Shown here piece after piece: positions 14,801-17,800 of a stretch of 64,000 bases of DNA. The first letter of the stretch is position 1. Each line of letters starts with the position of its first letter. Made by a program: the position numbers and the translations under genes. This DNA is from a virus, in IMG/VR virus record IMGVR_UViG_3300046170_000505. One strand, 5' to 3'. The notes beneath the pieces were generated by a model. It worked only from the letters and a program-made list of their open reading frames with translations. It was not told where the DNA came from and did not search any database.

Positions 14801-17800
14801 GGGTATGGAAGCTTAGGGCGTCTAGAATATTTTCATACAGAAAGTTTTGGCGCTCCTACTATGAAACATATAGAGCAGCGAAACAAACAAGCCCACAATA
14901 TAAAAGCAAATTTAGGCCTAATCCCTAATTTTGCAGACTACAGAACTCGTGAACAAAAAATAACAGATTATTTAAATGATCCAGCTAATGACAAAGTAAA
15001 GTTTAAAAGGCCTAAAATGCCAGCAAATATAACTCCTACGCAAATAAGTATGGCGATGAATGTCCCAGTAGGAGGTAATGTTACTAAAGAATATTCTGAC
15101 AATGAAATTAAAAAAGCAATATCAGAAACAATACAGAAAAGAAAAGATTTACAACTGGAGGGTTTTGAAAATTTAAAAAACGTAGACATAGATTCTGTTC
15201 TTAAAAAATACAAAGAATCAACAAAAGATGGGGATTTCTATGGCGATAAAGATTTAAGCTATTCTTCTGGTCTCGTTCCTAACTTCGTTGATAAAGTTCA
15301 AAACGGTGCAATCTACTACAGTAAGCCTCACAATAAGATCGTGAGGGTAACTCGCGTAGATAATGACAAGAAAATCGCAAGGATCAAACATCACGACATG
15401 GAAAAATACAAAGATGAGGAAGTATTTTTCAAAGATCTTGAAGCAGTTTCAGCTGAACAGGCAAAAGAATACTTCCAGAAAAAGAGTTCTGGCCTTGTTC
15501 CTAACTTTGCACAACAAGCAGGCAATACTTTGTTGATGGAGCCAAGTAAATTTTTTACTTATGCCAACTCAAGCGATGTGGCTAAAGCTCTAGGGAAAGG
15601 AGTAAATTACAGAGAAATTCAAGATAAGATGGACTCACAGGAACCTGTATCGATAAAAGCTAGCCTGCTGGATATCATAACTTCGTCTGACAAAAATAAA
15701 ACAAAACCCACTGGAAAAGAAGCATTACATGGCACCTTTAACTCTTTAGCGTCAAAAGGGATTTCTTATATAGAAAGAGATTTTATTTTCAGGCAACTTA
15801 AAAGAAGAGGAGCTAGACAAAAAAAAGGAGAATCAGATCCAGATTTTAACGAAAGAAAAGTCACTGCTCAATTAAATGCGGAACAAGATATAAGAGAAAC
15901 AGCTGGATCAACTTACACAAAATATTTATCTACATATAACCCTGAAACAAAAAAGGGCGACCCTTCTTATCCCATCGATCATATAGCAGAAGGTCTTGAG
16001 TTTTCTTCAGGAGAAACTAAAAGCGGAGAATTTATCGCCGCAAATTTGATCTCTAAAAGTTTGCGAATGGCTTCTGATAGAGAATTAACCTCATGGTTAG
16101 AATCTCAAGGCGTTAAAGACAAAGGTCTTGATGAAAAAAACTTAAAAAGAGCTCAAAACCTAGCCTCTCAACTAGGAATAAAAGGAACTAAAAAAGATGA
16201 ATCTGAAGAACCCACTTTTGATCAAATAGACGCTGACGCTTGGGGAATGAATAAGGGGTTGGTGCCTAATTTTGCCGATCTAAGCAAATCAGAGAGGCTC
16301 AAGATGATGAAAAGTACATTAAGTTTCCAGGACGAATACGAAGATTTAGCAAAAATGGGCAGTCCGCTAGCAAAGTGGGCCTTAAAGACCGTCAAGGACA
16401 AAGAATTCAAGATGATTGGCAATGGAATGGAATCGTGGGCCATAGGAAACGAGGAGGTTGTTTATAAGCTGCCAAGGCCAATGATAGATAGCTTTAGTAA
16501 AACAGGCGATCTAGAACTAAAAAGATGGAGAAAGCAAATGAAAGTGATGGCTCAACCTTCTCTTCAGTATAAAGTGAGTCCAGAAAATAAAGCTTGGAAT
16601 CTTGTGCCGAATTCAAATATAGCAAAAAGAGCGGAAAGAATAAGGTCTCAACTTGATGAGCTTGGTATTAATTCACTGTTTTTACCAAAAACAGAGGTGT
16701 TAAAAGTAGCTGGGCAAGACGAGTTTATAACTTCCCAGGAAAGGGTTAAGGGTAGTACTTTTTTTAATCTTCAGAACGAAATTGTTAAAAACAAAAACAA
16801 TAAAACCGACTTTAATCTAGACGGTTATAAGATTGTCGAGCATTTAATGGAAAACATTGGCGAATCCACGATGATAACGGATGTACATTCTGGTAATTTT
16901 ATAGCTGAGGCAAGCAAGAAGAAACAACTCTTAAATACGGTTAATCAATTTGCCCCTGTCGGATCAAAAGAATCTAAGCCGTTGAGTAGATTGGGATTGA
17001 GAAGTTTGCCTAATGACAGTATGGCTGCGATTGATTTTTCTTCAGGCCTAATTCCGAACTTTGCTGATTTATACAAGCCATACATGAATAAAGGGGGAAA
17101 GGCTATAGGTATGGAAAATTATTTCTACAGTTCTAATAATCAGGAGGACGCACTAAATTACATAAAGTCCAACAAAAATTTGAATATAAAAACTGGAAGC
17201 TCTGAGCTCAGGAAGTTTAATTTTCCTCCGAGAGTTTGGGAAATGTTAACATCTAATAATCCTCAGGATATCGAACCTCAGATGAATGTACTGCCAATAG
17301 GAACCAGGACCCCTATTGGCAAGGGCGACCCTTATAGGGATACAAGTCTCGGAAAAGGGATGAGCGAGCAGGAAGATTTTTATGCCATAGCTTTAAAGAA
17401 TACTCTTGGGATAAGGCCTCCGTTCTTTGAAAAAACAGATTCCTGGAGAAACGGTGAGACTTATTCTACCTTAATGACTAACTCGTCGCAATTCAGGGAG
17501 ATGTATAATTTAAACAGGTTGGATGGGAAAAATGTTATTCCTAATTTTGTTAAATATGACAAATCGCGTGGAGGCTCAGGGGCATGGGGAGCTATACCTA
17601 ATAATCGAGAAGGAAAATATGGAGGTTTTATTCCAAACTATAAAAAACTATATCAAGCATATATCGGTGACGATAAAAACTATAGAGCCAACAGGACTAG
17701 TAGCGCTTGGTATTTTGATAGTCAAAAAGGAACAGATGGAATATTAGATGATTGGCGAGGCGTGGTATCTAGCGGAGCCGTGAGCAAAGGCATTGGACAT

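Follow-up and report, generated by a model that had tools for sequence, protein, structure and literature searches.

The tape measure protein and its cassettes

The window analysed here is a 64,000-nucleotide stretch of viral DNA (IMG/VR record IMGVR_UViG_3300046170_000505), and the records closest to it are environmental viral contigs. A giant tape measure protein (TMP) of 5051 amino acids (aa) is encoded in it by one open reading frame (ORF). The subject of this study is a segment of that protein, aa 1487–1740, which is bounded by two linkers of the GLxPNFA type (aa 1478–1486 and aa 1741–1749). Judged from its sequence, the segment is most likely a self-contained cassette, a divergent protein-kinase-like phosphotransferase that lacks the C-terminal, substrate-binding subdomain.

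The carrier is a tape measure protein by domain content and by position. The Pfam family PF10145 (PhageMin_Tail) matches aa 117–316 with an E-value of 1.5e-24 and 87.4 bits, against a cut-off of 33.2, and the ORF lies upstream of the tail-tip genes. At the N-terminus there are matches to 14 PHROG tape-measure families, the best at E 4.6e-47. The tail-tip genes downstream are of the lambda type (gpM, gpL, gpK and gpJ types), namely Phage_min_tail, Phage_tail_L, a JAB plus NlpC/P60 protein, and Phage-tail_3.

Thirteen copies of the linker motif G[LF][IVT]PN[FY] are found between aa 647 and aa 2837 of the TMP (window 13757–20344), dividing it into about 12 cassettes, which recur in another order in related TMPs. 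In P0002 and P0003 the kinase-like cassette comes after a cassette that sits two cassettes downstream of it in the window, and in P0004 the cassettes preceding it are absent from the window. Since the borders are kept while the neighbours vary, and in view of the conservation and substitution ratios given below, the cassette can be regarded as an autonomous, selected protein module. A cassette resembling ADP-ribosyltransferases (ARTs) lies between two linkers in P0002 and is missing from the otherwise near-identical P0003, which suggests that cassettes are gained and lost through recombination at the linkers. In the window, the same array that holds the kinase-like cassette includes, at 19580–20104, a cassette with the LYRG...STS...ExE pattern typical of R-S-E ADP-ribosyltransferases. 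Pfam returned no ART match for aa 1740–3000 of the TMP at E-values up to 1, and this cassette is another orphan enzyme-like module.

Kinase-like motifs and proposed layout

The first-pass annotation had described a minimal kinase domain at this place from five motifs in order. All five (IGNGMES, VVYK, TSQERVKG, DVHSGN and IDF) are in frame in the 5051-aa ORF at the positions it had given (Table 1). It had also stated that the domain stops at the equivalent of the DFG motif and runs into the linker, and this is borne out by SSGLIPNFA, which follows IDF directly. Because the linker starts at once after IDF, nothing like the usual C-lobe helices is present within the cassette.

The proposed layout in Table 1 takes its secondary structure from low-confidence AlphaFold2 (AF2) models only. 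The sequence GSPLAKWAL in the N-terminal extension is invariant in all homologues. The insert that follows beta3 is predicted, again at low confidence, to form a helix and a hairpin, and it is 7 residues shorter in the most divergent homologue, L001. Two helices are placed between beta4–beta5 and the catalytic loop.

Table 1. Position and conservation of the features assigned to the tape measure protein and its kinase-like cassette (window coordinates).
Feature	Position	Strand	Remarks
TMP ORF, 5051 aa	11819..26974	+	single ORF; carries the cassette
Upstream linker NKGLVPNFA	16250..16276	+	left cassette border; one of 13 linker motifs
N-terminal helical extension, aa 1487–1529	16277..16405	+	predicted helical in both AF2 models, at low confidence
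Predicted beta1, Gly-rich loop, beta2, beta3, aa 1530–1554	16406..16480	+	Glu1538 before strand 2, Lys1550 in VVYK; invariant in all five homologues
IGNGMES, aa 1533–1539	16415..16435	+	in frame
VVYK	16457..16468	+	Lys1550; in frame
Insert of ~46 aa between beta3 and candidate alphaC, aa 1555–1600	16481..16618	+	putative assignment as insert
Candidate alphaC helix AKRAE..., aa 1602–1616	16622..16666	+	conserved Glu; AKRAE invariant, predicted helical
Predicted beta4–beta5 and hinge, aa 1617–1645	16667..16753	+	conserved Gln1640 in TSQERVKG; QER[VI]KG kept in L001
TSQERVKG	16730..16753	+	in frame
Catalytic-loop equivalent, aa 1684–1697	16868..16909	+	Asp1688, His1690 and Asn1693 in DVHSGN; DVHxGNFI kept in L001; best hhalign segment against DAHPxN of Kinase-PolyVal
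DVHSGN	16880..16897	+	Asp1688 and Asn1693; in frame
Variable insert, catalytic loop to IDF, aa 1698–1734	16910..17020	+	37–55 aa across homologues; 18 aa longer in L001; holds [N/E]QF at +16
Candidate metal-binding strand MAAIDF, DFG equivalent	17021..17038	+	Asp1739; IDF invariant in all full-length homologues including L001
IDF, aa 1738–1740	17030..17038	+	Asp1739; in frame
Downstream linker SSGLIPNFA	17039..17065	+	right cassette border; linker motif; next cassette unrelated

Written as a regular expression, the ordered set of motifs has one match in the real TMP and none in 2000 composition-preserving shuffles. The catalytic-loop motif alone is found in 243 of the 2000 shuffles (12%), and the catalytic loop followed by xDF in 8. 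These numbers are generous to the motifs, since the pattern was written after the sequence had been seen.

The spacing of the DFG equivalent is non-canonical. Asn1693 and Asp1739 are separated by 46 residues in the window and by 64 in L001, compared with about 13 in ordinary kinases, so the assignment of IDF requires a long variable insert between the two. A second candidate, [N/E]QF, lies at a near-canonical +16 from Asn1693 and was not taken as the primary assignment; its first residue is N in the window and E in L001. The Asp of IDF is invariant, as catalytic residues normally are, and Asp1739 is therefore preferred as the metal ligand. The earlier identification of IDF as the DFG equivalent is accordingly retained for its invariance in the full-length homologues, with the spacing as its weak point.

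Homologues and selective constraint

An exhaustive phmmer search over 1.84 billion representative proteins gave four genuine relatives, of which three are 88% identical and one, P0005, is 56% identical. A fifth match, P0006, is spurious and due to a repeat protein. The cassette family is thus tiny, with about five members in that collection. A word-indexed search found 2 relatives, scans of IMG/VR one contig, and a scan of JGI metagenomes three near-identical loci; the IMG/VR and JGI scans yielded near-identical copies only. No homologue of the cassette was found in the scan of GTDB genomes.

The only divergent homologue is L001, a 192-kb long-read contig, in which the cassette, its two frames read separately, is 55% identical in the N-terminal half and 30% identical in the C-terminal half. 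The Gly-rich loop, VYKLPRP, AKRAE, QER[VI]KG, DVHxGNFI and IDF are all retained there, and an 18-residue indel separates the two sequences in the stretch from DVHxGN to IDF. Lys1550, Asp1688, Asn1693 and Asp1739 are invariant across the family. The ratio of nonsynonymous to synonymous substitution rates (dN/dS) of the cassette is 0.24–0.26 against two relatives of about 86% identity.

The TMP of L001 (6815–19907) is split into at least 7 called genes on this pilon-polished contig. One of the breaks lies inside the kinase-like cassette (about 12115–12125), where the frame shifts in a TTTT run. The breaks look like homopolymer sequencing errors and not like real pseudogenisation.

Similarity to atypical kinases

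A language-model search and a profile-profile comparison point to kinases. With a protein language model, the nearest clusters bearing a name or a Pfam family were sought for the whole module (recognition score 2601). They are a cluster of SteC effector kinases (0.95), Kinase-PolyVal (0.93), a cluster that is in part T7 kinase (0.93; only 11% of it carries PF27024), OspG (0.92) and YrbL (0.92). With the N-lobe alone (aa 1503–1652), from which DVHSGN and IDF are absent, SteC (0.91), Kinase-PolyVal (0.90) and YrbL (0.89) are again the neighbours. By name or family, every one of these neighbours is an atypical kinase belonging to the Pkinase clan.

A scan of 401 genomes from the phylum of genome G003 for the Kinase-PolyVal family PF18762 gave one sub-threshold match, the seed from which 56 Kinase-PolyVal proteins were gathered for profile-profile comparison. 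Against alignment A3 of the family, hhalign gave the cassette alignment a P-value of 0.022 and put SQ....G and DxHxxN in register. Against the 56-member Kinase-PolyVal alignment the P-value was 0.0039 and the score 26.6, a score reached by none of 200 column-shuffled decoys (maximum 24.1); the reversed query scored 11.5. Removal of the N-terminal helices of Kinase-PolyVal gave P 0.0025, and Lys1550 was then aligned with the invariant Lys, SQ with SQ and DVHSGN with DAHPxN, in that order. When 20 segments across the whole TMP were compared with Kinase-PolyVal, the kinase-like cassette stood at P 0.0028 and all others at 0.097 or above. Lys1550, Asp1688, Asn1693 and Asp1739 correspond to K86, D206, N211 and D223 of A3, the equivalence of Asp1739 being by motif only. 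The SQ....G of the cassette, with Gln1640, is placed on the invariant SQP..G of Kinase-PolyVal, its SQ on the invariant Q157, the strand assignments being predicted. At a permissive threshold, the Gly-loop/Lys region, the hinge and the catalytic Asn are also aligned in the same order with YrbL.

Weighing the kinase assignment

A number of results weigh against a kinase delivered by the virion. Pfam hmmscan of the cassette and all its homologues returned no kinase at E-values up to 10. PF18762 in particular gives no match up to E 10 and does not reach its curated cut-off of 27 bits, nor does it match anywhere on the whole record of a relative, and a hidden Markov model (HMM) built from the 56 Kinase-PolyVal members and run with filters off finds nothing at the cassette. 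No kinase was found in PHROGs or in NCBIfam, the latter giving one stray weak match to a type III secretion system glycosyltransferase, and none among PDB sequences by phmmer or profile search, which gave two chance matches with E above 0.3. The profile-profile result has its own weaknesses: the hhalign probability against Kinase-PolyVal is 2–12%, the signal comes mainly from 10–13 columns around the catalytic loop, the N-lobe alone has no significant match to Kinase-PolyVal, and the comparison with YrbL is not significant (P 0.22–0.24). As for the language model, the N-lobe query has a recognition of 2150, below the tool's mark of 2300, and the tool gives ten same-clan matches for a third of shuffled proteins too. 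Both the 46–64 residues that separate Asn1693 from Asp1739 and the extra stretch of about 46 aa that follows beta3 are unusual, and in the collected Kinase-PolyVal members the Asn–Asp spacing is 12 residues. Finally, the lumen of the tail tube would be too narrow for three folded 30-kDa domains next to one another, a difficulty for their storage and refolding.

Structure prediction gave no confident fold. AF2 reached a predicted local distance difference test (pLDDT) of 35.3 from the single sequence and 38.5 with a six-row alignment, and a deeper alignment is not possible because the family is too small. A Foldseek search of the PDB with the pLDDT 38.5 model gave no match at E of 0.001 or below, the best having E 2.4 and a template modelling (TM) score of 0.10. 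The Pfam matches obtained were all sub-threshold, namely DUF5903, TetR_C_14 and DUF4895. The last is a weak match (E 0.02) of window 16688–16882 (aa 1624–1688), from the hinge to the start of the catalytic loop, to profile positions 89–157 of 218.

The minimal kinase fold put forward in the first-pass annotation is therefore kept in qualified form: the language-model neighbours, the weak but specific match to Kinase-PolyVal and the published description of a kinase without a C-lobe speak for it, and the lack of any kinase HMM match against it. Taken over the three readings that share such a fold, the cassette probably has a kinase-like fold. Among them, a protein kinase delivered by the virion is the reading that we favour on the sequence evidence, with modest confidence.

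The alternative that survives best is a coincidental match of motifs in a domain of some other, unknown fold, such as a TMP module for structure or binding without phosphotransfer, which we consider unlikely. Coincidence would agree with the silence of kinase HMMs and PDB sequences, the low AF2 confidence, the low hhalign probability, the non-canonical spacing of DVHSGN and IDF and the ease with which the catalytic-loop pattern alone arises in shuffles of so long a TMP. It accounts poorly for the full ordered motif set, absent from all 2000 shuffles, and for the fact that the residues of the set are the same ones kept at 30% identity. Nor does it explain readily why kinase families are the nearest in the language model both for the whole module and for the motif-poor N-lobe, or why the hhalign score is unique among the 20 TMP segments and above the 200 decoys.

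A kinase-like fold might also act on a small molecule, such as an envelope sugar or lipid, a nucleotide or an immune signalling molecule, in the manner of APH, Kdo/WaaP, ABC1 or MTR kinases. Loops of the D-x-H-x-G-N type are typical of several small-molecule kinases of the kinase superfamily, and since these share the D-x-H-x-x-N pattern of the cassette, where Ser/Thr protein kinases have D-x-K-x-x-N, a non-protein substrate has to be reckoned with. The cassette is without an activation segment or a substrate-binding C-lobe, and the phage has many genes for modifying lipopolysaccharide (LPS) and sugars. We nevertheless hold such a substrate to be rather improbable. The nearest language-model clusters (SteC, OspG, T7 kinase and Kinase-PolyVal) are protein-directed, no APH, Kdo or choline-kinase HMM of Pfam matches, and Kinase-PolyVal, which has DAHPxN itself, was judged by its describers to be nearer to protein kinases (PMC5512222).

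A pseudokinase or nucleotide-binding scaffold, which would keep the fold and perhaps ATP binding and serve as a binding module or decoy, has the slimmest chance, for although the domain is extremely reduced, an insert of about 37–55 aa stands where the metal-binding strand should come and the canonical Asp would be missing were [N/E]QF the structural DFG equivalent, the invariance of Lys1550, Asp1688, Asn1693 and Asp1739 is unexpected for a dead enzyme.

Proposed mechanism

If the cassette is a protein kinase, the Gly-rich loop IGNGMES with Glu1538, together with Lys1550, would hold ATP, and the Glu of the AKRAE helix may pair with Lys1550. Gln1640 would be placed in the N-lobe's final strand. 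Asp1688 and Asn1693 of DVHSGN would carry out phosphotransfer, and Asp1739 of IDF would bind Mg. Should the domain be active, about 210 residues, with the metal-binding strand as their end, would be enough for the catalytic core of a kinase.

In siphophages, the TMP leaves the tail before the DNA does and enters the envelope and cytoplasm of the host. As part of a TMP, the kinase would therefore arrive pre-made, and it might reach the cytoplasm and phosphorylate host proteins at a time when no phage gene has yet been expressed, in much the way that T7 kinase disarms defences. Injection and the phosphorylation of host or defence proteins had been part of the first-pass proposal; the idea draws on the TMP context and on the analogy with T7 kinase. 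An active domain would mean that a siphophage delivers through its TMP a kinase ready for use, along with an ADP-ribosyltransferase-like module and further cassettes, and that host proteins could be modified in the first seconds of infection, before transcription.

In its most extended form, the proposal would make the cassette the founder of an unrecognised and very rare family of kinases without a C-lobe, carried as a cassette of a TMP "polyprotein" of the virion, ejected before the DNA, freed at the GLxPNFA linkers and phosphorylating host defence or housekeeping proteins before transcription, as a pre-loaded counterpart of the T7 kinase strategy. This whole chain is doubtful and is offered tentatively. 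Domains of this kind are missed completely by standard HMM annotation, so the number of similar orphan effector cassettes in viral metagenomes is probably underestimated.

Neighbouring genes

Just upstream of the TMP, two ORFs of 2439 aa (window 3319–10638) and 375 aa (10635–11762) contain divergent InlB B-repeat (Flg_new_2) domains. At this place, where genes for the tail tube or for decoration are expected, lies a very large protein of structural or adhesin-like type. Far downstream, a 400-aa ORF (57652–58854) matches the papain-family cysteine protease Peptidase_C1 with E 9.5e-16, which is unusual in a phage. The protease might be a candidate for cleaving the TMP at the linkers; nothing connects the two so far.

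Genes of sugar or LPS type are clustered at 42669–46917, 50602–51141, 53651–54556 and 62189–63999. They include a GT9 heptosyltransferase-like gene, GT1, GT2 and GT25 members, and a GDP-mannose 4,6-dehydratase-like gene, and are adjoined by class I ribonucleotide reductase (RNR), NUDIX and SSB genes. The cluster hints at a Gram-negative host and at remodelling of surface glycans. The large subunit of the phage RNR (54829–57252) is 74–81% identical to genes on four contigs (L006–L009) binned into metagenome-assembled genomes (MAGs) of four unrelated lineages, namely Thermodesulfobacteriota, Woesebacteria, Cellvibrionales and Halobacteriovorax. The contigs, one of which measures 211 kb, are probably related phage contigs mis-binned into the MAGs. 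The kinase-like cassette was not found in the four MAGs that carry the similar RNR gene.

Comparison with known systems

The small atypical kinase domains of SteC, OspG/NleH and the YrbL-PhoP_reg family (PF10707) resemble the cassette in their size of about 200 aa, in having C-lobe elements that are short or missing and, if the proposed injection holds, in being delivered into a target cell. They are type III effectors or cellular proteins, however, and not components of a phage virion, and the profile of YrbL is not significantly similar to that of the cassette.

Like T7 gp0.7, the T7 kinase (T7K, PF27024), the cassette would be a reduced kinase encoded by a phage, have a DFG-like motif that departs from the canonical one and act early in infection. 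T7K is a broad anti-defence enzyme, whose phosphorylation disarms host defences including a retron and DarTG, and its homologues have DPV at the DFG position (PMC13645617). The cassette has IDF and not DPV there, gives no Pfam match to PF27024 and does not belong to the T7K family. Moreover, gp0.7 is a free early gene product made after DNA entry, not borne by the virion, and it has a C-terminal DNA-binding and shut-off domain. If the favoured reading is true, it would extend to the virion the idea of promiscuous phage kinases that disarm bacterial immunity (PMC13645617).

A tape-measure scaffold whose functional modules can be exchanged and are ejected into a target is also seen in Sle1 of the Streptomyces contractile injection system (PMC13277306). 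Sle1 differs in having one C-terminal functional domain and in belonging to a contractile injection system, and the abstract and outline of its description mention neither a kinase module nor a linker-bounded array.

The closest parallel is Kinase-PolyVal. Iyer et al. (2017; PMC5512222) described a monophyletic Ser/Thr/Tyr-type kinase in the polyvalent proteins of phages and conjugative elements, in which the whole C-terminal subdomain is lost, the active-site residues are kept and an insert is present, with a Glu preceding strand 2 and a Gln in the N-lobe's final strand. Kinase-PolyVal and YrbL are both members of the Pfam PKinase clan (PMC9758233). The cassette differs in being missed by the PF18762 HMM and by the 56-member HMM, with weak profile-profile similarity (P about 0.003), in its extra insert after beta3, and in its carrier, a TMP with GLxPNFA-bounded cassettes, a tape measure context that is absent from PMC5512222. 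As it fails the HMM test of that family, it is not filed as a member, though the design is the same. Both are without the entire C-terminal subdomain and end just past an xIDF strand (PIDF in Kinase-PolyVal). The Glu before strand 2 would be Glu1538 (GMES/GVES) and the Gln in the last N-lobe strand Gln1640 (SQER), both invariant in the cassette family. K-x-x-[KR]-P after the beta3 Lys, S-Q-x-x-x-x-G and a D-x-H-x-x-N loop are common to the two, and the ATP-binding Lys, the catalytic Asp and Asn and the metal-binding Asp (Asp1739, by motif) are intact in the cassette. In both cases the domain is part of a very large, multi-domain, virion-associated protein with an ART-like domain alongside. Should the cassette prove to be an injected kinase, it would extend the idea of injected multi-enzyme polyvalent proteins (PMC5512222) to a new vehicle, the tail's own ruler.

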